A stretch of DNA of 64,000 bases from a virus (lineage: Duplodnaviria; Caudoviricetes). Positions 11,048-63,077 of the stretch are shown one piece after another. The translations under genes and the position numbers were made by a program. Numbering within the stretch: position 1 is the stretch's first letter; the number at the start of each line of letters is the position of its first letter. The DNA lies in IMG/VR virus record IMGVR_UViG_3300031992_000031, positions 32,001 to 96,000 of that record; one strand, written 5' to 3'. The notes under the pieces were generated by a model that did no database searches, was not told the DNA's origin, and saw nothing but the letters and a program-made list of their open reading frames with translations.

Positions 11048-11119
11048 GGTTCCAACACTCGTCGGTCGGGTACGGGTCTGCAAAATCCGCGTTAGTGAGT
11101 TCGACTCTCACTGGAACCT
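11048..11119 (+). tRNA. tRNA-Cys(GCA)
   Basis: Loop CTGCAAA; U73 discriminator. Confidence 0.82.
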
Positions 11120-11136
11120 CATTAGGAGTGACATAA

Positions 11137-12763: not shown

Positions 12764-12767
12764 CTTA

Positions 12768-12825
12768 TAGGCCATTACAGCAAACTTTGTAGAAATAGGA
12801 AATAATACAACAAACAATGGCCTAG
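12768..12825 (+). ncRNA. CAGCAA-hairpin small RNA candidate, copy 3
   Basis: Stem TAGGCCATT/AATGGCCTA, then ACAGCAA. Confidence 0.5.
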
Positions 12826-12945
12826 CTTTATGAATATTTGCTCCATCTTGGGGCTAATAGATTGCCGCGTTAGGAACCTTATGGTGGAAGAGCCTTATTT
12901 GAAAGAGGTAGAGTAGTATCTACAACTCTTCCGCGGCGTTTTATT

Positions 12946-13098
12946 TTTAGAACTGTAGGCTTAGAAGCAGCCATCAGCTAAAGAGTTTTCGTTTCTCCAT
13001 TCGTGCGAAATGTATTATGGGCTTACGATTATACGCCCCATAAGTATGATGTGCGATAGATAATAGAAAATGAAATTTGGCGTAATAGCACATCTAAA
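12946..13098 (+). ncRNA. 23S rRNA L11-binding domain (H43-H44) mimic with ~90-nt insertion
   Basis: TGTAGGCTTAGAAGCAGCCATCA..TAAAGAGT and GCGTAATAGC match 23S nt ~1058-1100; closed by TTTAGA/TCTAAA. Confidence 0.75.
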
Positions 13099-13100
13099 AT

Positions 13101-13191: not shown

Positions 13192-13296
13192 TGCGGTGGT
13201 GGAATAGGTAGACATTTGGGGCATGACACACGTAAAGAGGTATGCGAGGGCGTGAAGTCTGGGTGTGTCCTGTGAGGTGCAAATCCTCACCCGCAT
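13192..13296 (+). ncRNA. tRNA-Leu-like RNA lacking a canonical anticodon arm
   Basis: D-arm GTGGAATAGGTAGAC; T-arm GTGAGG TGCAAAT CCTCAC; central long arm GACACAC/GTGTGTC. Confidence 0.6.
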
Positions 13297-13300
13297 TTAT

Positions 13301-13457
13301 AGTCCCTTAGCGTAATGGTAGCGCAACGGACTTGTATGGGTCGTCTAGGTTGGAAGGCCGGCTCGGTGTATTAGAATACACAGATGAGAAGAAGTGAGTT
13401 CGATCCTCACCCCATGCATTGACTCCGTATGTGTTGGTCCGATTCCAACAGGGACTG
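13301..13457 (+). tRNA. tRNA-Gln(TTG) interrupted by an 86-nt tRNA-like insert (13333-13418) in the anticodon loop
   Basis: Acceptor AGTCCCT/AGGGACT; anticodon stem ACGGA/TCCGT; removing the insert gives CT-TTG-AC. Confidence 0.85.
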
Positions 13458-13496
13458 CTTTGAAACAATCTTATTTATTAAAGCTTAGGAGGAATT

Positions 13497-15652: not shown

Positions 15653-16129
15653 ATGCCTATTCTGTATATTATGTGCGGTCCATCTGGATGCGGTAAAACA
15701 ACTTATTGTAGTGATAAGATGGAGTTGGCTCATTGTGTTTATGTTTCTCGCGATGTAGTTCGCTATGAAATTGTTAAAGAAGAAGAAGATTATTTTTCTC
15801 ATGAAAAAGAAGTTTTTCGTGAATTTGTACGGCGTATTGTAGAAGCTATGACCAATGGCTATGATTGTATTGCTGACGCAACTCATCTTAATCAGTTCTC
15901 ACGCCGTAAGCTTACACAAGCCATTGATATGTATACTACTGATTATAAAATTATTTATGTAGTATTTAATGTAGATGCCAATACTTGCGTTGCTCGTAAT
16001 GCTAATCGCACTGGGCGCGCCAATGTCCCAGAAAATGTTATTCGTAATATGTGCCGTGATTTTCGCGCGCCAACTAAGGATGAAGATGAACGGGTAATTG
16101 ATATTATTGAGGTAGGTGATGATAAATGA
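15653..16129 (+). CDS. AAA_33 / polynucleotide-kinase-like P-loop kinase
   Basis: GPSGCGKTT, SRDVVR, DATHL, RNANR. Confidence 0.85.
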   Translation: MPILYIMCGPSGCGKTTYCSDKMELAHCVYVSRDVVRYEIVKEEEDYFSHEKEVFREFVRRIVEAMTNGYDCIADATHLNQFSRRKLTQAIDMYTTDYKIIYVVFNVDANTCVARNANRTGRANVPENVIRNMCRDFRAPTKDEDERVIDIIEVGDDK

Positions 16130-16696
16130 GTGAGATTTTCTTTACAAGTGATACTCACTTTTGTTAGCCATAATAAAGAATTTCTTTATAAGCCGCGTGG
16201 CTTCTCTTCAATAGAAGAGATGAACGAAGCTATTGTAGAAAGATGGAATTGTGTGGTGCCAAAGGAATGTGGTGTAATTATTTATCATCTTGGCGATATG
16301 GCACTATCAGATACTGAAGCCGCAATTCCTTATATTAAGCGTCTAAATGGAGAAATCCGTTGGATTCGTGGAAATCATTGCTCAGATGCTCGTGTAGATC
16401 AAATTCTTGCGGCTTGCCCCAATGTTCAGCTTATTAGTCAAAATAAGGATAATGCTTGGGCATATATATTGAAAGACGGGAAGTGGCGTTTTTATCTTAG
16501 CCATTATCCTACTAAAGTTGCTAATTATGATGATACTCCAAAACATAAAACCTGGTGTCTTTGCGGGCATACGCATACTCAAGATAGATGGAAAGACCTT
16601 ACAGATAGTTGTTATCATGTAGAAATGGACGCTCATGATTGTTATCCAATTTCTCTCGAACAAATTAAAGCTGAAATTAAAGCATTAAATATTTGA
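16126..16696 (+). CDS. Calcineurin-like metallophosphoesterase with a +1 frame break at ~16162-16168
   Basis: Frame 1 gives MSEIFFTSDTHF; the +1 frame continues HNKEF..HLGD..RGNH..SHYP..GHTH. Confidence 0.75.
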
Positions 16697-16843
16697 CTTA
16701 AAATAAAATTTCTGGTATAATTATTATGAAAGATGAAACAGTATGGGATTATTCTGATTGCCAAATCGGACACCCATGTATAAATTGTATAAAAGAATGT
16801 ACCTTCCGACTTGACAAAGTTGTAGATGAAAAGGAGAAAAAAG

Positions 16844-18346
16844 ATGAACGAATTACTGAAAAATCTGAAAAAAGAATCTAATTACCGTTATACTGAAAAT
16901 GGCGCTCTTACTCATAAGACCACCTTTAATAAGGTGCTTGATATGTTTGGTATGGGTGGCGCGATGCGTAATCGCTCTGAGGATGACATTATTACAATGT
17001 TTAAGGGCGCTTATGAAGAAGAGCCCACGTTGGCTCTTCGCTGTTTGTTCTACCTGCGGGACGTGCGTGGAGGTCAAGGAGAACGGCGCTTCTTCCGTAT
17101 CATCCTCCATTGGATGGGCAACTATATGACTGATGAGGTTGAACACCTTATTCCTATGATTAGTGAATATGGCCGCTGGGATGATCTCTTTGAACTCTTC
17201 GGCACTAAGTGTGAGCCTGCGATGCTTGGATATATTCACTATACCATCTCTAAGAACGAAGACCATCTTATTTATAAATGGCTTCCTTCTATCAACGCCT
17301 CCTCTCGCACTACTAAATCTCGTGGTCGCAAGATTGCCACCGAATTTAATATAACTGAACGCGAGTATCGTAAGATGTTGACTGAAGGCCGCAAGGCTTG
17401 TAATCTGGTCGAATCTCTGATGAGTCAGAATCATTGGGATCAGATTGCCTTTGATAAGTTGCCTTCCCGCGCGGGCCTTCTGTATAAGAGAGCATTTATG
17501 CGCCGTGAGGAAACTAAGGCACGGTATGCCGATTTTATGAGCAATGAAAAGACCAAGGTCAATGCTTCGGTACTTAACCCTGTAGAAATTGCTCATCAGA
17601 TCTTCAACTATAACAGTTGGAATCGTCCGAGCGATACCGAGCGCAGCGCTTGGCAGAAATACTGGGACAACTTGAAGGACTATTATAATGGCCGTGAAGA
17701 ACCCGGTATTGCTGTCGTAGATGTTAGTGGCAGTATGTATGGTCAGCCTATTGAAGCCGCAGTCTCCATGGGCGCATATATTGCCGAACGTGGTAAAGGC
17801 CCTTTCCAGAATCATTTCATTACGTTCAGCAGCAACCCTGAACTTGTAGAGTTTAGTGGTGTGGACGTGTATGATAAGTTTATGCGCGCGAGATCGGCTG
17901 AATGGGGCGGAAGCACTAATATCGAAGCCGTTTTCAATTTGCTTCTTGATACTGCTCGTCGGAATCATGTATCAAAAGAAGATATGCCCAAGACTCTTTA
18001 TATCTTCAGTGATATGGAGTTCAATGGATGTATCACTAGTGGGCCCGTATCTTACGATCGTTGGGCTTCTTCTGGCCGTCCTCTTAGTGAGTGTCAGATC
18101 AATACGGTCATTGAAGAACAGGCTCGTAAATGGCGGCAGTATGGTTATCAGATTCCTCGTGTGGTATTCTGGAATCTTGATGCTCGTCATGATAATATCC
18201 CTGCTATCGGAGATGGATTCTCCTATGTAAGTGGATTCTCCATGAACATGGTAGAATGTATTCTCTCTGGCAAAGATGGATATGACCTTTGTCTAGAAAA
18301 ACTGAATAGTGAACGCTATCAGCCAATCTCTAGTGCCCATAAATAA
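16844..18346 (+). CDS. DUF2828 / TROVE(Ro60)-like protein with vWA domain
   Basis: ENGA, RDVRGGQGER, GRWDDL, KWLPS, VVDVSGSM, FSDMEF, VFWNL. Confidence 0.8.
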   Translation: MNELLKNLKKESNYRYTENGALTHKTTFNKVLDMFGMGGAMRNRSEDDIITMFKGAYEEEPTLALRCLFYLRDVRGGQGERRFFRIILHWMGNYMTDEVEHLIPMISEYGRWDDLFELFGTKCEPAMLGYIHYTISKNEDHLIYKWLPSINASSRTTKSRGRKIATEFNITEREYRKMLTEGRKACNLVESLMSQNHWDQIAFDKLPSRAGLLYKRAFMRREETKARYADFMSNEKTKVNASVLNPVEIAHQIFNYNSWNRPSDTERSAWQKYWDNLKDYYNGREEPGIAVVDVSGSMYGQPIEAAVSMGAYIAERGKGPFQNHFITFSSNPELVEFSGVDVYDKFMRARSAEWGGSTNIEAVFNLLLDTARRNHVSKEDMPKTLYIFSDMEFNGCITSGPVSYDRWASSGRPLSECQINTVIEEQARKWRQYGYQIPRVVFWNLDARHDNIPAIGDGFSYVSGFSMNMVECILSGKDGYDLCLEKLNSERYQPISSAHK

Positions 18347-18435: not shown

Positions 18436-19239
18436 ATGACAAATACTTATGGTTATAATAGAAAATCTCGTGAAGAAGATGAGGCGATCTTTAAGGCAGT
18501 AAAGCGTCATCATAATGCTGTCGCGGCAAAAGGTTATCTCGTTGTAATGACTAGTTTGGTAGGAAGCCAGAATTATGATCTTGATAATGATAATAGTGAT
18601 ATTGATACTTTTAGTTTTATTTATCCGCCTTTAAGCGATCTTTCCTTGGCGCGAGAACCATATGCGGGAATGTTTGAACTAAAAGATGGTCATTGTGAAA
18701 TAAAAGATATAAGGTTAGCATTTAATCTATTACGTAAAACCTCGCCAAACAGTGTAGAATATTTTACAAGTAAATATAAAATTTACAATCCAATATTTGA
18801 GCCTATTCTAAAAGAATATCTAGAAGATAATATTAGAATATGGAATATGATACATTGTAATTATAATCATATGCTGAGCGCGATAGCTGGTATGGCGCAT
18901 CAACTAACAAAACGTAATATGCCAGGAGGCAAACGTTTTAGTCATGCACTCAGATTAGATGATATGTACTATCACTTTATACATAGTCCAAATGCAAGTG
19001 CGGTTTTAGACTTGCGCGCGGGCGGTAATAGAGAGCTGGCTTTTATATCTAAGCACGATAAAGAAAATGAAAATGAATATGATAATCAATGTCAGCAGAT
19101 TGCGAATAAATTAGATAATTGTAAGGACAATTTTACTTTAAATGAAGAACAATTAAAAATACAACAATATGGGCTATCACTGATTGATAGCCTTCAGTGG
19201 AAATTATTTAAAAAATATTTGGAGGAAGTTAATAAATAA
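18436..19239 (+). CDS. Pol-beta-superfamily nucleotidyltransferase
   Basis: GSQNYDLDNDNSDID (hG[GS]x9-13DxD). Confidence 0.8.
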   Translation: MTNTYGYNRKSREEDEAIFKAVKRHHNAVAAKGYLVVMTSLVGSQNYDLDNDNSDIDTFSFIYPPLSDLSLAREPYAGMFELKDGHCEIKDIRLAFNLLRKTSPNSVEYFTSKYKIYNPIFEPILKEYLEDNIRIWNMIHCNYNHMLSAIAGMAHQLTKRNMPGGKRFSHALRLDDMYYHFIHSPNASAVLDLRAGGNRELAFISKHDKENENEYDNQCQQIANKLDNCKDNFTLNEEQLKIQQYGLSLIDSLQWKLFKKYLEEVNK

Positions 19240-22336: not shown

Positions 22337-22427
22337 TACATATGTTAAAGTTGATAGTGTATAATTTTTTGACATTTGGTAAAAATTCTGATATAATATT
22401 AGTGTAAAGAGAAAGGAGTGAATTAAT

Positions 22428-23651
22428 ATGTTGAATGCTAATTCTGAGCGCGAACTCGCCTATGTTGTATTGATTGACGGTATTGAGCCTATTCCTGGCT
22501 ATGATCGTGTAGAGCACGCAATTGTTGGTGGTTGGCGTGTAATCGTTCAAAAAGGCCAGTTTAAGGTAGGCGACCCCGCTATTTACTTTGAAATTGATTC
22601 TCGTGTACCTTCTAAGGAGTGCTTTGCTTTTCTTGAAAAGCGGCATTATAAAGTTAAGACTTTGAAGATGTGTAAGACTTTGTCGCAGGGCTTGCTAATG
22701 CACGCTTCTGACTTTGGTTGGACTATTGGTAATGTTGAACCTGAAACTCCATATATTATGGATGATGAACGCATACCTCATTATGTAAATGATGAATCTC
22801 GCTTCCTCACCAAGAAACTTGGCGTAACCTATGTCGATGATGAAGATAATTCTCGTAAGGCTCCTTCAGTAGATAAATACAAGAAGATGGAGATGCGACA
22901 TCGCAAGCTGTTTAAGAATCCTGTAATTCATTGGTTTATGCGTTATAAGTTTGGTCGCAAAGTAATGTTTTTCTTCTTTGGTAAGAAGAAAGATAAGAAA
23001 AATGGTTGGCCTTCTTGGGTCCAAAAGACAGACGAAGAAAGAGTACAGAATATGCCTTGGATTCTTAATAGCACCGATAAGTGGATTGCTACTGAGAAAA
23101 TTGACGGCACTTCTACTACTTTCACCATGAAGCGTGGCAAATTCGGACGTAAGTCTTTCTATGTCTGCTCTCGTAATGTATGCTTCGGTGAAGAAGATAA
23201 ACCTTGCTACTACGATACGAATGTATATTGGGAAATGGCTAAGAAATACGATATTTACAACGTGCTTTCTGCTATGCTTGATGCTCATCCTCATGATGAA
23301 TGGATTACTCTTCAGGGTGAAACCTATGGTGCAGGTGTACAGCGGCGTGAATATTCTCTTGATGGTCATGATTTTGCGGCTTTTAACTTGATTTTCTCTT
23401 CTCGTGGACGTGTTGGAACTGTAGAAATGATTACTATTTTGAGTGAATATAATGTACCATGCGTACCTGTAGTAAAAGCAAATATGACCTTTACAGATAG
23501 ATTTGCAACTGTAGAAGATATGCTTCTCTGGGCTGAAGGCAATTCTCAAGTAGATGGACTTCCGCGTGAAGGAATTGTATTCCGTACTCTCGACGGACAG
23601 AAATCTTTCAAAGCAGTAAGTAATAGTTTCCTACTTAAATATCATGGGTGA
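22428..23651 (+). CDS. ATP-dependent RNA ligase, Rnl2/DRB0094 type with N-terminal OB-like domain
   Basis: Motif I TEKIDGTS, QGETYG, FAAFNL, REGIVF, FKAVS; N-terminal IEPIPGYDRVE..GGW.VIV.KG.F..GD..IYFEIDS. Confidence 0.87.
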   Translation: MLNANSERELAYVVLIDGIEPIPGYDRVEHAIVGGWRVIVQKGQFKVGDPAIYFEIDSRVPSKECFAFLEKRHYKVKTLKMCKTLSQGLLMHASDFGWTIGNVEPETPYIMDDERIPHYVNDESRFLTKKLGVTYVDDEDNSRKAPSVDKYKKMEMRHRKLFKNPVIHWFMRYKFGRKVMFFFFGKKKDKKNGWPSWVQKTDEERVQNMPWILNSTDKWIATEKIDGTSTTFTMKRGKFGRKSFYVCSRNVCFGEEDKPCYYDTNVYWEMAKKYDIYNVLSAMLDAHPHDEWITLQGETYGAGVQRREYSLDGHDFAAFNLIFSSRGRVGTVEMITILSEYNVPCVPVVKANMTFTDRFATVEDMLLWAEGNSQVDGLPREGIVFRTLDGQKSFKAVSNSFLLKYHG

Positions 23652-25877: not shown

Positions 25878-25948
25878 TAAAAATACATATCTTTAAGGAG
25901 AAAGCCACTCTTATTTGAGTGGTTTATTTATTATATGGAGGTGAAATC

Positions 25949-28846
25949 ATGGCGATTAATAAAGACTTGTATAAAGGCACATTTAAAAAATATAAAAATT
26001 TAATGTTTTATGATGGTCATGAAGTAGATTATTTTTACTTTTTATCTCTATTAACTTATACAGATAATGATCCAGATTATAATTCACTAGCTAACGAAAT
26101 TGTTATGCAGGGCGCCGCAGCATTAGCTAAGCCGCCATTATTCAGAGAAACTAATAGTAGCGAGATGCCAGCTTTAATGCAATTGCAAAAAGCTTTAGAA
26201 TTTTTATAGAAAGCGGTATAGTATGAGCGTACAAACGAAATTCAATATTTTAAATAGAAATTTGCCATCTTAAAAGATAGTTTTTCTGCTGAAGAAATGA
26301 AAGAAATTAAAGAAATTACACAGTTAGAAAAATTATTCGCAGACGGCGGAAAAGGCAAATTCGATTATAATTATATGATAGTATTAATTAATATATTAGA
26401 ATAGGGTTTAAAGTAGACAAAAACAGTAGCACAATATGAAGAGAATCGCATTACAACTATTGCATAGTAGATGGCAAAAATTAAACAATCACGTAGAAAA
26501 TAGCTAGATGGATTATGGAAAAAACAAAATGGCTTAGGAAAAAATGATACTATTAATTAGAATGATCCTAAATATATCGAATATATTAAAAAAGCCAATA
26601 AAAAATTTCATCGAAATATTGAAGTTTCATATGTAACACACGGTAATTTATCTTCTCCTCTTGATGATAAAAAACGTAAACGTATTTGGGGTGCAAAAAA
26701 ATATTTAGCAGATATTCCAAAAACAGTAGATGTTAAAGTAGGAGAGTGGATTACATCGCATATTCAAGAAATTTTTGAATCAGAAATATATATGAAACAA
26801 TTTGAAGAATTAGCTTCAGAATATTTATCCACTGGAAAAGCAAACACTTCTACTGTTCGAGAAATGCTAGTAAAATCAATAATCAATGACGGTGTAAAAC
26901 ATACGGTTGAAATTCTTGAAGGGGCTTATAAAGAGTTACCAACAGATGAATTTATTAAAACATTAGAAGAACAAATTCAAGAAACACGCGAATATAAAAT
27001 TTCTGGCTATTATTCTAATTTTGGACAATATGGTCGTCATTTAGATTTTTTTGACTCTAAAACATTAAAAAATGGACAAGAAGTCGCGGATGGTCTATAT
27101 GATGCATATAGTAATTTAATTAAAGAATTAACTAAGACAAACCATAAACGAACTAAAGAAGAAACACAGCTCATGGCCGCTGTCAAATAGCGTGGACATT
27201 TACAAACATACACTCGTATGATTTCTTTAATTAATAAATTAGAGTCCGCAGAAAGAAAATGGGATAAGTGGCAACAAGATATTGCCTCAGGTCGCAGAAA
27301 GCAAGATAAAATGACACAAATTAATTTAGGATCAGACGGATATGGTGGAGACGTAATTGTACAAGTAAAAATTACTGCTAAGGGTGTAGAATTTCTAGGA
27401 GAATATGAATCACAAGATAGCGGGCAAGTATTAAACAGTGCATTGAATAGAACCTCTTTAATGAGAAAGGTTGGCAACGGTAGAACAAAGGCTACTACAA
27501 TTAAAGGAGCTGTTACAGGATTAAAAACAAAAATGAGTCATAGTTTAAGAAATGATTTATCAACTTCTATCGCATTTATCATGGCAAATCCTAAAAATAA
27601 TAGAACATATGAGCAAGTTACAACTGCATTTGAAAAAGCCTTAACAGGATTAAAACTATCCGTAGGCGGCCCAAAATTATCAGAAATCGCTCCGGGTATA
27701 TTATAGGCAACAATACAAGGTACATTAGACGTACATCATCCAGGCTCAATAAATAGACGTAATGATATGATTACGATTACACTTCAATATAATAATATTC
27801 ATTTAGAATCAACATTAACAGAGATTATGAATCTACGCGCAGAAGAATTGGTAGATAGATTAGATCCAGAAATAGCAAATATATAGAAAAACTATATTAC
27901 AGATTTTGAACACAAGTTTTATCAAAAAATGAGTAAACTTAAAAGTACTGATGCAAACTATAATAGTTTAGCAGAAAATGAAAAAATCTGGTTTGAATAC
28001 TATCAAGAATAGTAGAAACGTTTAAAAGATATTTAGGAATTAGGAACCGAACTTGATAGTGAATGGGGTCAATATGTAGAAAATGCTAGAAAAGAAGGGC
28101 GATCTGAAGAAGAAATTAATGCACAGAGAATAACCATTTTAGAATCATTAAAAGATAGTTTCTTCATCTCTGATACTATGAAAACATACAATTAGTATCA
28201 AAATAATTTAGGCTTTGGTGGCGCAAGTTTAGGAGCAAGCGTAGAAGCGCAACTTGCTAATTTAAATACATTATTTACAAAAGCCGGATGTCCCATTTAG
28301 GACTCGGATTTATTATGGTTACGCAGTGCTATAATCAATTGTTCTCCTGTTAGCATCGTTGGTGAAAAAAATAAAAACATAATAGAAAATTATTTAAGTT
28401 CTATGGCGGCATTAGCAATGTTTGATGAAGGCAGTGCTGAGGCTCAAATTATTGATGATTTAAACAAAAAAGTAGAGGAGCGAGTAAAGACTAGCCCAAA
28501 TATTTTACATTTATACCGAGTAAATGGTATTTTTGTGCCAGGATCCGTTGTATTGTCGCGTACGATAGAAGAATTATCTAAATGTTTAGATGCTGGTACG
28601 CGCTCTTTAGATATGACGTTATCCAAACGTGGTGCTGGCGTTACAATTATTAATACGATGAATGAAGGATTAATTCCTAACAGGTCTACTACCAGTAAAC
28701 GTTATCCCGTGGAGGATACGGATCCATGGGGAACAGTAGCCAGTGCTACTGATTCACATGTAAAATTAAAAATAATGTTTTTAGCTGGTTTATTAGATAT
28801 AGTAAATGATATGAATAAAATTATGGGTAATATACAAGCACCGTAA
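25949..28846 (+). CDS. Large hypothetical protein (965 aa; ~17 in-frame TAG=Gln)
   Basis: ATG after GGAGGTG. Track ORFs 25919, 26792, 27218 and 28403 are one frame with no TAA/TGA until 28844. Confidence 0.8.
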
Positions 28847-30970: not shown

Positions 30971-32104
30971 ATGATTAATTATTTTACTAGTGAACCAATG
31001 AAGTATTTTGCTCCACCTTCTACTATGAGTGCGGAGGTAAGACGTGCCAAATTAGAACAAATGGTAGATAGTGGTAATTATCTTTTTGGATTAAAAACAG
31101 ACGGGAATTGGTCTCGTGCTGTAATTACACCTGAGCGTCAAGCATTACAGACTCGTGGTATTTCCACTGTTACTAAAACTTATGGAGAAATACAGGATAA
31201 AGTATTTTTCTGGGATGAAGTTTGTAGCGCTTTTAAAGACACCACAGTTATTCTTGGAGAAGTATATTTACCGGGCGCGATTGATAAAGACGTAGGTTCT
31301 ATCTTACGTTGCTTAACTCCCAAAGCAATAGCACGACAGAAAAATAATCCATTAAAATGGCGTATATTTGATGTCCTTGCTTTGGATGGAGAAGATTATA
31401 TGAACGTTAGCTTTGAAGAACGCATTCAATTGATACCAACGGTAGTAAAACGTATTAATTCTTCCCTCGTAGAAGGCGTAACATATTATGAAATGGATGA
31501 TACATTTTTTGATAAAATGGGCGAGATTTTCGCAACGGGTGGAGAAGGCGCAGTATGCTATCGAAAAGATTCGATATATATTCCCGGGAAGCGCGGTCCG
31601 CACGCATGGGATACCTGTAAAGTAAAACAGGAAATTGCCTCAGAAATTGATGCCTTTATTATGAGTACAGTCCCTGGCGAAAAACTATATAATGGTAAAG
31701 ATTTACCTACATGGCAATTATGGGAAAATCACCGCACCGGAGAAAAGGTTGTTGGTACATATTTTGGAGAGTATCAACTTGGCGGTTCATATATCCCTGT
31801 ATCAAAAAATTACTTTAATAATTGGCCCGCCGCGATTCAGGTCGGCGTTTATGATAGAAATGGAAATGAAGTACCATTGTGTAAAGTATCAGGATTAACA
31901 GAAGAATTTAAGACTTCTTTACGCGATGATCCTAATAGATGGATTGGTTGTCCTGTTACTATTGGTGGCATGATGGTTTCATCAGCTAAGGCAGATTCAG
32001 AAGGAAATGGTATCTCTATTCGCCATCCGCTTTTGAAACGAATTAGAGAGGGCGATTTACTAAAAGAAGATTGTACTTTAGCGAAAATATTTAATGAGGC
32101 GTAA
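30971..32104 (+). CDS. ATP-dependent DNA ligase
   Basis: KTDGN, GEVY, FDVL, EGAV, KVK, IRHP. Confidence 0.85.
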   Translation: MINYFTSEPMKYFAPPSTMSAEVRRAKLEQMVDSGNYLFGLKTDGNWSRAVITPERQALQTRGISTVTKTYGEIQDKVFFWDEVCSAFKDTTVILGEVYLPGAIDKDVGSILRCLTPKAIARQKNNPLKWRIFDVLALDGEDYMNVSFEERIQLIPTVVKRINSSLVEGVTYYEMDDTFFDKMGEIFATGGEGAVCYRKDSIYIPGKRGPHAWDTCKVKQEIASEIDAFIMSTVPGEKLYNGKDLPTWQLWENHRTGEKVVGTYFGEYQLGGSYIPVSKNYFNNWPAAIQVGVYDRNGNEVPLCKVSGLTEEFKTSLRDDPNRWIGCPVTIGGMMVSSAKADSEGNGISIRHPLLKRIREGDLLKEDCTLAKIFNEA

Positions 32105-48490: not shown

Positions 48491-49321
48491 ATGGGATATA
48501 TTTATAAAATTACTAATTTAGTCAATAATAAGGCTTATGTTGGACAAACAAAATAGCCTATTGAAATAAGGTGGGAAGCGCATGTATATGCGGCTTTCAG
48601 AGAAAATGACGATAATAGATATTATCTTCATCGTGCTATAAATAAATATGGTTTAGAAAATTTTAAATTTGAAATAATTGAAGAAGTTCCCAATACTAAA
48701 TTGGATGAAAGAGAAATTTATTGGATAGCACATTTTCACACATATAGATATGACGAAGAAGGAAATCAAGGTTATAATCTAACTCGTGGCGGTAAAGGTA
48801 ACTGGAAATTTGAACCAGAAGCGCTATTGAAAGCATTTTTTAATAATAATGAACATTTAGGAAATACATGTAAAGATATTGGATGTGCAGAGCCAACTTT
48901 AATCAAGGTTTTACAAGAAAATGGATTATTTGGTAAAGGTAGTATGACTTCAGTATATCAAATATCTTTGGTAGATGGAAGTATTATTAAGAAGTTTGAT
49001 TCAGCCATAGAAGTTATGAAAACTTTTAATCGTTGTAAAACTGCAATATGTGATGCAATGAATGGTAGACAGAAAACTGCTGCTGGATATATATGGTGTA
49101 AAGTAGAAGATTATCCTAATTTTAAACTTGAAGAACATATAGATAATAAGCAAAAGAAAGTATTATGTGTGGAAAAGAATTTACAATTTAATATGATTAA
49201 AGATGCTGGCAAATGGGTATATGAAAATGGATATACGACTAGTAGAGAAGTAAATGCAAATATATGTAGAGCATGTAAAAAAGGTATAAAAGCATACGGC
49301 TTCCATTGGCAGTATGTATAA
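48491..49321 (+). CDS. Free-standing GIY-YIG homing endonuclease (TAG=Gln at 48554)
   Basis: MGYIYKITN..KAYVGQT..RW upstream of and in frame with track ORF 48701; NUMOD1-like repeats. Confidence 0.85.
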
Positions 49322-61000: not shown

Positions 61001-61989
61001 CATTGGAAGACTTCCTCGAAAGAGTTAAAGTAAATAAGATTCAAATGACTAATTTGATTAAGTGCGGGGCATTTGATGACATGATGAAGATTCCGCGTGA
61101 AAAAATCATGGAAAAGTATATTGATTTAGTTGCGGATAAAAAGCAGAGATTAACACTACAAAACATGCAGATGTTAATCAATTATAATTTAATCCCGGAA
61201 GAAATGAATTTTGGTAAGAAAGTATTTTTATTTAATAAGTTTTTGAAGCAACAAAAGAAAGTTGAGTATTATCAACTGAATGATGCCGCAATTAATTTTA
61301 TAGCAGATAATTTTAGTGTAGATATTTTAAGAAATGGAACTGAATTATCAGCGGCGAAATGGGAACTTATTTATCAGAAAGCAATGGACCCAATGAGAAT
61401 GTATTTAAAGGCACATAAAGATGAGATGCTTAAAGCATTAAATAATGCGTTATATAAAGAAGTGTATGATAAGTATGCTCTTGGTTCAATATCCCATTGG
61501 GAAATGGAAGCAGTTAGTTTTTATAGTCATTCTCATGAACTTGCAGAATCTCAATATTTATATGATGATTTCTTCAGTTTACCGGAAGAGCCTGAAATTG
61601 ATTACAGTTTTGTTGGTAAAGACGGTAATGAAGTTAGAATATATAAATTGAGAAAAATTATTGGAACCGTTATTGATAAAAGTAAAATGAAAAATACAGT
61701 TACATTATTAACTCCGACAGGAGTTGTAAATGTAAAAATTTATAAGAATCAATATGCGGGATTCGATAAGCAACTATCACAAAAGGGCGCAGACGGCAAA
61801 AAGCATGTTATCGAGAAGAGTTGGTTCTCACGCGGTAGTTTGTTAATGGTTCAAGGCATTCGTAGAGGTTCTGATTTTATACCGAAGAAGCGCAAAGATA
61901 GTTTTTATCCAGTTATTTCAAAAATAATTAATGTACATGATGATGGGACATTAGAGTTTCAGACAGAGCGGGCGGTGATAGAAGAGTGA
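58033..61989 (+). CDS. dnaE: DNA polymerase III alpha subunit
   Basis: PHP HNHTEYS/AITDHE, RGSG, DIDVD, GIHAGG, KMDLL, GYGFNAAH. Confidence 0.95.
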   Translation: MSQYPGSVHNHTEYSNETLRDCINTVQGLIDLAIELGHECVAITDHETISSYIKAEKYYKKIKEKHPDFKLIRGNEIYLTRNGLTAKNYDKTKDKYFHFILLAKDIEGYKQICELSTRAWQRSYMSRRQRRRPTYYQDLKDIVKPNQGHLIASSACLGSQLDKFLLQYMDTGDEQYFDTARRWCEYIEDIFGSGNFYLELQPSDNKEQIFVNKQLLRLSEMLGINYIITTDSHYGRPEDAPIHEAFLNSQDGDREVKSFYATTYMMKDEEIRSFLPYLTSEQIEAAYTAIREIKNKCEDFSILKPLKIPSLPWREFDVSNDEIEDAIEKIPELEKFLASEYRADNKLVEAVVEGIRKHPDLQNEKAYEALNECLEMTWVSSEVNKAQWSAYFLNLQKIIDECWNAGTLVMPARGSGMGFVLLYALDIIQINCLREKTKTYPWRFLNPARVSVLDIDVDIEGVRRAQVLEHLRKVYGENRVSNVATFKTEKSKSAIQTACRGLGIDNDEASYISNLIQAERGQVFTLKQTYYGDEENGLAPNQAFINEVSKHPGLWEVAQRIEGLICGQGIHAGGVVFTDEDFTESSALMRAPDGTVITQFELHDLEDVSMIKMDLLSVEAADKIHTCLDLLVEQGYIKQYPTLRETYENALGVYKINRDDKKMWDMVQNHEIVSLFQMEQQSGVRGIALTHPRSVDELAVLNSVIRLMATEKGAESPLDKYARFRENPKAWDREMQQMGLTEEQRAIMHRELDISDGMSITQEQFMQLVQLPECGGWDLQWADKLRKSIAKKNPKDYDALTKQFFDNVKEKGLNEKFCHYVWDVEVALSRGYGFNAAHTYSYSMIALQEMNLARFYPIIFWNTANLIVDSGGIQTEEVEDEDEGLDVEPEAEEEDDEDEEEWEEENEVTEGEKEDKKKEKTKSVDYGKVASAIGRFDSYGIKVSPPNINSSSYSFTPVVERNEILYGLRGITRLSTSIIKEIMEMRPFDSLEDFLERVKVNKIQMTNLIKCGAFDDMMKIPREKIMEKYIDLVADKKQRLTLQNMQMLINYNLIPEEMNFGKKVFLFNKFLKQQKKVEYYQLNDAAINFIADNFSVDILRNGTELSAAKWELIYQKAMDPMRMYLKAHKDEMLKALNNALYKEVYDKYALGSISHWEMEAVSFYSHSHELAESQYLYDDFFSLPEEPEIDYSFVGKDGNEVRIYKLRKIIGTVIDKSKMKNTVTLLTPTGVVNVKIYKNQYAGFDKQLSQKGADGKKHVIEKSWFSRGSLLMVQGIRRGSDFIPKKRKDSFYPVISKIINVHDDGTLEFQTERAVIEE

Positions 61990-63077
61990 TAGGTTTAGTA
62001 GACTTACAATTGTAGAGTTGGCAGAAACCTTCACTCTGCCCTCCCAATTTAGAAATAATGAAGTTAGCTACATATTATACAACAGAAGAAAATAAGTTCT
62101 GTCGTTTAATCAATTTAGATGAAACTGAATTTGGCGGCTATGAAAAAGTATATATATTTAGTGAATCAAAAGATTTTATTACTGTGCCCGAAGCATTTAA
62201 ACGAGCATCAAATGTAATATATGGAGGTTCAGCCTTTACAAACGGTAAATACATTCCATTCTAGAATAAACTAATAGATTATACTATCGCTCGGCCGCGA
62301 ATCTATGCTAACTTTCTTAAAGAAAAATACCAAGCTGGATTAAGAGAAATTGAAATAACAAGATTATTAGATAATACTTATTATAGATGGCACGCTGGAA
62401 AAGAAGTTTTACCGCTTCCTGCTATTAAAAAACGTCATCGAATTTATATATACGATTTAGATTTCTTTTAGGAAGGTTGGCGCAATATTATAGATAGAAT
62501 AATAAAGCGTTCTCCCTCCTCTATAAATTTTATACATCCAGCACATTATAAAAAGATTTCAGATTTTCTGGAAGTACGTGAAAACTCATTAATTGCCAAA
62601 GGAAATGATGCTTACTTGGATTTAAACATTCCGCTAAAAGAAACGCCTATTTTAATGAAACATTATAAAAATCGTTTATTAGCAGTAATAAATCCTAGCG
62701 CGCAAGTATATTTATCTTTAGGCGGTTCATTCCATTATCAATCTGACTATTTAAAAGATATTATTTATAAATTAAATTTACTATATGTATTTTGGAGTTG
62801 TAAAATTCCTTTAAAAATAAAATATGAAGAACCGGCATTAGGATGTTTTAATCCAATACCGGATCTTTCAAAATTAATATCAACTTGGACGCAAGGTGAT
62901 ACTTGTAATTATAAAAGTATTATAGATAGAATACCAAAAGATAAAAGTTTAACTGATATACGCCCTGAGCGCGAACAGTTAAGACAAATATTAGATAGGT
63001 ATCCTTCATATGAAACCTTGTTTCGTCAAACCACAGGAACAGTTAGAAAAGGAGGTCTTTGGAAGTATGGATATTAA
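61986..63077 (+). CDS. Hypothetical protein (3 TAG=Gln); N-terminus resembles PNL..MKL radical-SAM-associated proteins but lacks CxxxCxxC
   Basis: GTG overlapping the dnaE stop; joins track ORFs 62058 and 62616. Confidence 0.65.

Follow-up and report, generated by a model that had tools for sequence, protein, structure and literature searches.

The ligase locus and its RNA-repair neighbourhood

The window analysed here is a stretch of 64,000 nucleotides from a tailed phage whose record comprises 133,461 bp and is 75% complete. Its central feature for this work is a gene for a predicted ATP-dependent RNA ligase, located downstream of two tRNA genes that are interrupted by tRNA-shaped inserts and of several genes with probable roles in RNA repair. 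The relevant features are the following.

1804..1832, plus strand: promoter consensus upstream of the split tRNA-Asn gene (11/12 match)
1864..1982, plus strand: split tRNA-Asn(GUU) gene, broken after position 34 (halves 1864-1897 and 1944-1982)
1898..1943, plus strand: 46-nt mini-tRNA insert in tRNA-Asn, with acceptor stem and T arm, no CCA
13301..13458, plus strand: split tRNA-Gln(UUG) gene, broken in the anticodon (halves 13301-13333 and 13420-13458)
13334..13419, plus strand: 86-nt insert in tRNA-Gln, shaped like a degenerate tRNA-Tyr(GUA), no CCA
15653..16129, plus strand: Pnk-like P-loop kinase (AAA_33, phrog_505)
16130..16696, plus strand: calcineurin-like metallophosphoesterase, candidate for 3'-end healing
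16826..18346, plus strand: DUF2828/DUF7788/vWA protein (phrog_850 'RNA-binding protein'), putatively TROVE/Ro-like
18436..19239, plus strand: RlaP-like Pol-beta nucleotidyltransferase
22369..22397, plus strand: sigma-70-type promoter TTGACA-17-TATAAT (12/12 plus extended TG), predicted by consensus match
22414-22418, plus strand: ribosome-binding site AGGAG of the ligase gene, predicted from the sequence
22428..23651, plus strand: predicted Rnl5-family ATP-dependent RNA ligase, 407 aa, with OB and nucleotidyltransferase (NTase) domains

The kinase, the metallophosphoesterase, the DUF2828/vWA protein and the RlaP-like transferase are all encoded between the tRNA cluster and the ligase. Besides the ligase at 22428-23651, no Rnl1, RtcB or any other RNA ligase was found in the 75%-complete record, the missing part of which could hide another one. 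The RlaP-like transferase was not detected in about ten complete genomes that carry similar inserts and is for this reason apparently dispensable; it was rejected as a needed splicing factor.

The late genes of this phage read through TAG (coding density rises from 0.52 to 0.90), and a CUA tRNA is present. Regions where long ORFs appear only with TAG as a sense codon (code 15) are found at 92-1786, 25919-28846, 48491-49321 and 61986-63077, as well as in the record outside the window. The replication and RNA-repair genes of the window are mostly free of TAG, and the ligase gene has none in frame.

Family and predicted structure of the ligase

An initial reading of the sequence alone (hereafter the sequence-only reading) had described the ligase as an Rnl2-type enzyme with an N-terminal OB-like domain, transcribed from its own promoter. 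The OB domain was recovered by Pfam (PHA02142 OB, PF21189, residues 11-91, followed by the RNA-ligase domain PF09414 at residues 217-397), and the promoter at 22369 agrees with the sigma-70-type consensus at 12/12 positions and carries the TG extension. The Rnl2 label has to be replaced. TIGR02306 (DRB0094) matched with an E value of 8e-31, as opposed to 0.003 for TIGR02307 (Rnl2), whose 17 bits are far from the 197 required (NCBIfam). The TIGR02306 score of 107 bits is itself under the 151-bit equivalog cut-off, and judged by these scores the protein belongs to a divergent clade and is not strictly the DRB0094 equivalog. No match to the Rnl1 ligase domain (PF09511) was found in the protein or in the phage record.

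Sequence matches of the ligase in the PDB were NgrRnl chains only, and profile comparison gave E values of 4e-60 for NgrRnl and 2e-7 for T4 Rnl2. We have used an alignment of 57 homologs to obtain an AlphaFold model (pLDDT 87, compared with 32 for a single-sequence fold). This model superimposes on NgrRnl with a Z score of 35.1 (rmsd 2.3, 317 residues aligned), versus 18.7 for T4 Rnl2, where only the NTase domain aligns, and 13.9 for Rnl1. The eight active-site residues of NgrRnl, Arg4, Asp53, Arg149, Lys170, Asp172, Glu227, Glu312 and Lys326 (PMC7261155), correspond to R8, D57, R205, K224, D226, E298, E381 and K395 of the phage protein, all of them invariant or at least 90% conserved across the 57 homologs. 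Motif V is represented by K395 and the protein ends at residue 407, without any C-terminal appendage, its C-terminus aligning with that of NgrRnl; Rnl2 enzymes (T4 Rnl2, RELs), in contrast, have a helical C-terminal domain behind an N-terminal NTase domain. Between the OB and the NTase domains there is a basic helical insertion (residues ~140-195, with 18 K/R) that is missing from NgrRnl. Sequence and model together identify the product of 22428-23651 as a predicted Rnl5-family ligase, not Rnl2, in which the predicted active site is intact. The clade is large, with at least ~8,000 relatives at E≤1e-20, and 333 cultured-phage records contain Rnl5 relatives.

The two split tRNA genes

The nested tRNAs that the sequence-only reading had described in the Asn and Gln genes are real, in that excision of the inner element restores a canonical tRNA in both. 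Removal of 1898-1943 yields a canonical tRNA-Asn(GUU), the sole Asn tRNA detected in the 75%-complete genome. Homologs of this insert interrupt another tRNA-Asn gene at the same position and show a compensatory change from C-G to U-A; they have a non-canonical T loop and one additional 3' base after the stem.

Removal of the 86-nt insert likewise yields a canonical tRNA-Gln(UUG). This insert spans from the +1 of the inner tRNA to two bases past its acceptor stem (13333-13418 and 13332-13417 are equivalent registers). Intact orthologues of the tRNA-Gln gene exist in the related phages L021, L027, L412 and L421, the spliced sequence being identical to the intact orthologue of a relative at 70/72 positions, and the complete phage G004 has an identical copy of the insert, which is therefore a presence/absence polymorphism. 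The Gln locus was not found in any cultured phage. Directly upstream of the split gene there is a tRNA-Leu-like element with D and T arms and no anticodon arm (13192-13296), and a similar element precedes the same Gln gene in G004.

A group I tRNA intron was considered for both inserts and rejected, their 46 and 86 nt comparing with a P/Q/R/S core of ~200 nt or more plus a terminal G; neither insert matched an Rfam intron.

A class of tRNA-shaped inserts in phages

The intron mode of ARAGORN proved too noisy and mis-registered the junctions, so we have written an excision-based detector instead. Together with pattern scans it has provided 65 distinct tRNA-shaped inserts of 44-141 nt, 38 of them located after position 34 and 23 after position 35 of the outer tRNA (61/65 together). 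The inserts begin at the +1 of the inner tRNA, this register having been chosen where several were equivalent, and where only one of bases 34/35 is U, that U is found at -1 of the insert in 24/27 cases. Some remain complete tRNAs (Phe, Asp, Gly, His), and those that have no anticodon arm keep the acceptor stem and the T arm. Dozens of independent outer tRNAs are canonical once the insert is excised (ARAGORN scores of ~110-126), and in 9/10 genomes for which the DNA was fetched and examined no copy of the isoacceptor was detected other than the split gene. CCA-terminated inserts predominate in the class. Among 19 inserts found without selection for CCA, eight end in N73-CCA (seven by script and L039 by eye) and three in one-letter variants; a relaxed search added three further CCA-ended inserts. 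A strict double-T-loop pattern undercounts the class, with 3/17 genomes against 8/17 for the relaxed detector. Since standard scanners miss split genes, tRNA inventories of phages are undercounted.

A scan of bacterial and archaeal genomes identified real inserts at three loci only (L302, L348 and L382), all in MAG contigs that are probably phage. There is also a second subclass (L081, L120, L130, L094 and L113), left out of the counts of complete genomes given below, in which the acceptor strand of the inner tRNA and the anticodon loop of the outer one overlap, as in the Tyr-type introns of the Lak phages.

Co-occurrence of inserts, ligases and kinase

The sequence-only reading had proposed a check, namely whether phages with nested tRNAs commonly lack an ATP-dependent RNA ligase. 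In the genomes covered here they do not. Insert-bearing records were chosen by DNA pattern only and 24 of them are at least 90% complete; all 24 encode such a ligase, compared with 6/19 complete, large, tRNA-bearing control phages (Fisher p 7e-7, for genomes that are not independent). The insert-bearing set consists mostly of gut phages, perhaps 7-8 independent lineages, and the controls come from mixed habitats. No inserts were seen in the control phages inspected, an inspection narrower than a genome-wide scan. As PF09414 alone misses or mixes ligase types, the families were separated with TIGR02306, PF09511 and PHROG 968. Twelve of the 24 genomes have a full-length Rnl5-like ligase with OB and NTase domains (two subclades) and the other twelve have Rnl1, never both in full length; Rnl1 or Rnl5 was present in 4/19 controls. 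At least four ligase lineages are represented among insert-bearing genomes. A search of 56 records found RtcB in none. Four Rnl1-bearing genomes (G057, G068, G073 and G079) have an extra short protein of ~220 aa that matches only PF09414, without OB domain, and one of the twelve Rnl1 genomes also has an Rnl2-like gene.

The reverse relationship is much looser. Within the clade of the window's ligase, an insert was found in 8/17 complete genomes, and in the tRNA clusters fetched from the other nine, which include the closest relative (G001), there was none. On a quick IQ-TREE phylogeny of Rnl5 the insert label is scattered (7 changes, a number as low in 79/500 shuffles). A Pnk-like kinase accompanied the ligase in 41/41 ligase-bearing genomes tested, versus 6/19 controls. 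An insert implies a ligase, and a ligase does not imply an insert. The nine genomes without insert and the constant company of the kinase suggest that the ligase is a general repair enzyme, and speak against the dedicated splicing role first assigned to it.

Processing of the junctions

It had been proposed that host RNase P and RNase Z excise the inner element and leave exactly the ends that the ligase joins. RNase P prefers U at -1 (PMC10465520), and RNase Z cleaves 3' of N73, a CCA end generally blocking it (PMC3161902). Most of the class shows the features expected for RNase P, i.e., a 7-bp acceptor stacked on the T arm, a start at +1, U-1 and RCCA, although the window inserts have no CCA and the Asn insert has G-1 and a G.A closing pair. 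The non-canonical T loops of the Asn-insert homologs and of two other inserts would weaken this recognition. The 5' junction is in line with RNase P (inserts at +1, with U-1 in 24/27 informative cases); it is at the 3' junction that the proposal breaks down. An RNase Z cut fits only the window's Asn insert, and there by counting the G.A mismatch as the 1:72 pair, so that the claim of exactly right ends is true for this insert alone. Canonical cuts are one base off for Gln (giving an 8-nt loop) and for all seven matches to the Asn-insert homologs, and three bases off at CCA-ended inserts, at which RNase Z is blocked. Between the T arm of the inner element and the junction the spacing varies by 0-3 nt, yet the rebuilt loop always has 7 nt. 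The 3' end would have to be fixed by a different nuclease, by trimming, or by a distance measured from the outer stem. No RNase Z-like metallo-beta-lactamase gene was found in five genomes of the clade. When the halves are refolded the nick falls in the unpaired 7-nt loop.

Two functional suggestions made along with this route found no support either. A timing switch is difficult to reconcile with a ligase promoter of the same sigma-70-type consensus as those of the tRNA clusters and with a gene that has no TAG codon; besides, Asn and Gln tRNAs are available from the host itself. As to hiding the anticodon loop from nucleases, the spliced loop is canonical.

A proposed heal-and-seal kit and its possible use by tRNA-shaped introns

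The account that we favour, and hold to be somewhat better than even, is that the ligase does the sealing in a heal-and-seal kit of the phage and that the inserts are mobile introns which persist only where this kit exists. The kit would consist of the Pnk-like kinase, the phosphoesterase and the ligase and would mend anticodon loops, with the Rnl5-family enzyme taking in these gut phages the slot that T4-like Rnl1 takes in others. Host RNase P would cut at the +1 of the insert and leave a 3'-OH on base 34 of the outer tRNA. The 3' junction would not come from one canonical RNase Z cut but from an enzyme that cleaves behind CCA, from cleavage plus trimming of 0-3 nt, or from a nuclease whose 5'-OH product the phage kinase then phosphorylates. 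With the tRNA halves held together by their paired stems, the ligase would seal the 7-nt loop, possibly aided by the basic insertion, which might supply loop specificity. As for the origin of the inserts, a mature tRNA (5'-P and CCA-3'-OH) was probably joined by mistake into a cleaved loop, and the product later copied into DNA; the inserts would then have degenerated to the parts that the trimming enzymes need, the acceptor stem and the T arm. That phages host mobile, protein-dependent tRNA introns in this full sense, as tRNA mimics cut by tRNA-maturation nucleases, sealed by a phage ligase that in about half of these phages is a loop-adapted Rnl5, and arising and spreading by ligation of whole tRNAs into cut loops, has in our estimation an even chance of being right.

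The simpler route, in which canonical RNase P and RNase Z cuts alone give right-sized ligatable ends and the ligase, dedicated to splicing, works as a timing switch, appears very unlikely. Both window inserts are devoid of CCA, as RNase Z requires, the Asn insert fits exactly with its G.A mismatch taken as 1:72, and the Gln insert would also fit if RNase P miscleaved at -1, where the U could pair with A73. At the canonical sites, though, Gln and all the Asn-insert homologs are one base off, about half of the inserts found without CCA selection end in N73-CCA and would block RNase Z, the ligase is retained in 9/17 clade genomes where no insert was detected, and its gene has an early-type promoter and no TAG codon. 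It is also unlikely, if less so, that the inserts are never spliced and represent relics of mis-ligation or decoys for anticodon nucleases, their co-occurrence with ligases reflecting origin and not removal. Positions 34/35 are the cut sites of several anticodon nucleases, the insert ends (+1 and CCA) are those of mature tRNAs, and a mis-ligation origin by itself predicts linkage to ligases that join 3'-OH and 5'-P ends; the phage copies may moreover be dispensable to a virus whose host has its own tRNAs. The same ligase chemistry could explain how the inserts originated, and for this reason co-occurrence alone is no proof of splicing. Against this reading, the outer tRNAs have stayed canonical in dozens of independent instances (ARAGORN ~110-126), and the inner elements drop the anticodon arm while retaining the acceptor stem and T arm. 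One family of Asn inserts is found at one and the same position of two distinct Asn genes, which indicates mobility with precise ends, and an intact second copy of the interrupted gene is usually missing.

A further reading disconnects the ligase from tRNA altogether: it would seal RNA-containing duplex nicks in DNA repair or at Okazaki fragments, like DraRnl, and the inserts would leave by other means (through a ligase of the host, through a phage gene that escaped detection, or by the freed 3'-OH attacking the 3' junction). The biochemistry of Rnl5 ligases and the DraRnl knockout phenotype agree with it. NgrRnl and DraRnl act on nicks in duplexes and have only feeble activity on single strands, breaks in loops being the speciality of Rnl1/Rnl4 (PMC4408790), which counts against loop sealing here, since the nick in the refolded halves is unpaired. 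The presence of Rnl5 relatives in 333 cultured-phage records and the position of the gene, with the nearest split tRNA 9 kb away and the kinase 6 kb away, point the same way. Still, we find it improbable, given that Rnl5 and Rnl1 swap cleanly across insert-bearing genomes with a Pnk-like kinase always beside both, and that the phage already has a separate ATP-dependent DNA ligase (30971-32104). The mutual exclusion of Rnl5 and Rnl1, with one or the other in 24/24 insert-bearing genomes, supports the heal-and-seal account, in which the ligase re-joins the split tRNAs.

Comparison with known systems

The closest characterized enzymes are NgrRnl of Naegleria (PDB 5COT) and DraRnl of Deinococcus (DR_B0094), which share with the phage ligase the OB plus NTase build, the lack of a C-terminal domain and the eight active-site residues. 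The phage protein differs from them by its ~30% identity, its basic helical insertion, its tRNA-cluster context with a Pnk-like kinase and its proposed substrate, a nick in a loop instead of in a duplex. The demonstrated role of DraRnl is in DNA repair (PMC5397189), and the physiological RNA substrates of Rnl5 ligases have been described as unknown (PMC4408790, PMC5397189). Pnk, phosphoesterase, RlaP and TROVE proteins form RNA-repair modules in large phages (PMC7824862). Together with the T4 Pnk plus Rnl1 system, these modules share with our locus the gene set, the heal-and-seal logic and the adjoining tRNA cluster. Compared with T4, the sealer here is Rnl5 and the proposed substrates would include programmed splicing intermediates.

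Inserts of this kind were already noted by Devoto 2019. In the figure and table consulted (PMC6784885 Fig. 4, Table S6), the Lak megaphages have 'enigmatic' tRNA introns, a remark repeated in the relevant part of a 2026 survey (PMC13037316). As far as this material goes, the Lak introns resemble ours in being anticodon-loop inserts that may encode a tRNA, in being present or absent between relatives and in belonging to alternatively coded phages. Most of those in Table S6 have a common 5' leader and no terminal CCA, whereas the class described here starts exactly at the inner +1; by the same partial comparison, L081, L120 and L130 constitute a Lak-type subclass (5' leader, no terminal CCA). 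In the literature covered, with subscription journals mostly outside the search, we found no excision mechanism or ligase link for phage tRNA introns.

Splicing of tRNAs in archaea and eukaryotes uses EndA/TSEN with RtcB or Trl1, and bacteria have group I tRNA introns. The phage genes share with these systems an intron in the anticodon loop and, as proposed here, the rejoining of halves, but no bulge-helix-bulge was seen, the site is not 37/38 and RtcB was missing from the 56 records; with 44-141 nt the inserts are too short for the group I core. Both the ligase family and the inserts were thus already known, and what we add is a testable link between them and the Rnl5-or-Rnl1 pattern, which joins two questions, the substrates of Rnl5 and the phage tRNA introns considered enigmatic since 2019. 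If the proposal is correct, it would amount to a protein-dependent tRNA splicing in bacteria, built from housekeeping nucleases and a counter-defence ligase, by a route unlike ribozyme or EndA splicing, and it would provide the Rnl5 family with a physiological RNA substrate.

Split suppressor tRNAs and other structured RNAs

In phage G031 an amber suppressor tRNA(CUA), on the minus strand of L429 near 4374-4522, is split by a 77-nt CCA-ended tRNA-shaped insert; this phage also has a second, intact suppressor tRNA. The suppressor tRNA(CUA) of G007 (L415:13711-13975) is split by a 194-nt insert that looks group-I-like by eye and had no Rfam match at the gathering threshold. Split suppressor tRNAs could tie splicing to TAG recoding, and that of G031 is a better candidate for regulation than the Asn and Gln genes of the window.

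The tRNA cluster of the window also includes a phage tmRNA gene (RF00023, 8296-8620) and a cow-rumen-3 RNA (RF03083, 4345-4440), the latter pointing to a rumen-type phage. A tRNA-Cys(GCA) with an odd D arm (11048-11120) falls below the default detection threshold. The region at 12958-13100, which had no Rfam match, resembles the L11-binding region of 23S rRNA (H43-H44) with a long inserted hairpin, and a similar one is present in L012. Short structured trailers directly after tRNA genes (C1:29838-29880 and 4843-4900 of the window) we take to be possible HDV-like theta ribozymes. The sequence CGGTATATAAAGAA occurs three times in non-coding RNA regions (4590, 4707 and 2311). Finally, a stem-closed element with RCAGCAA after a 9-bp terminal helix is found in five copies (3901-3968, 4074-4146, 12767-12826, C1:30953 and C1:31543) and again in relatives. 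Its cargo varies, one copy containing an Asn anticodon stem-loop and another a permuted tRNA-like domain with the T arm before the D arm, and these elements may be RNA partners of the DUF2828 protein or serve as decoys.
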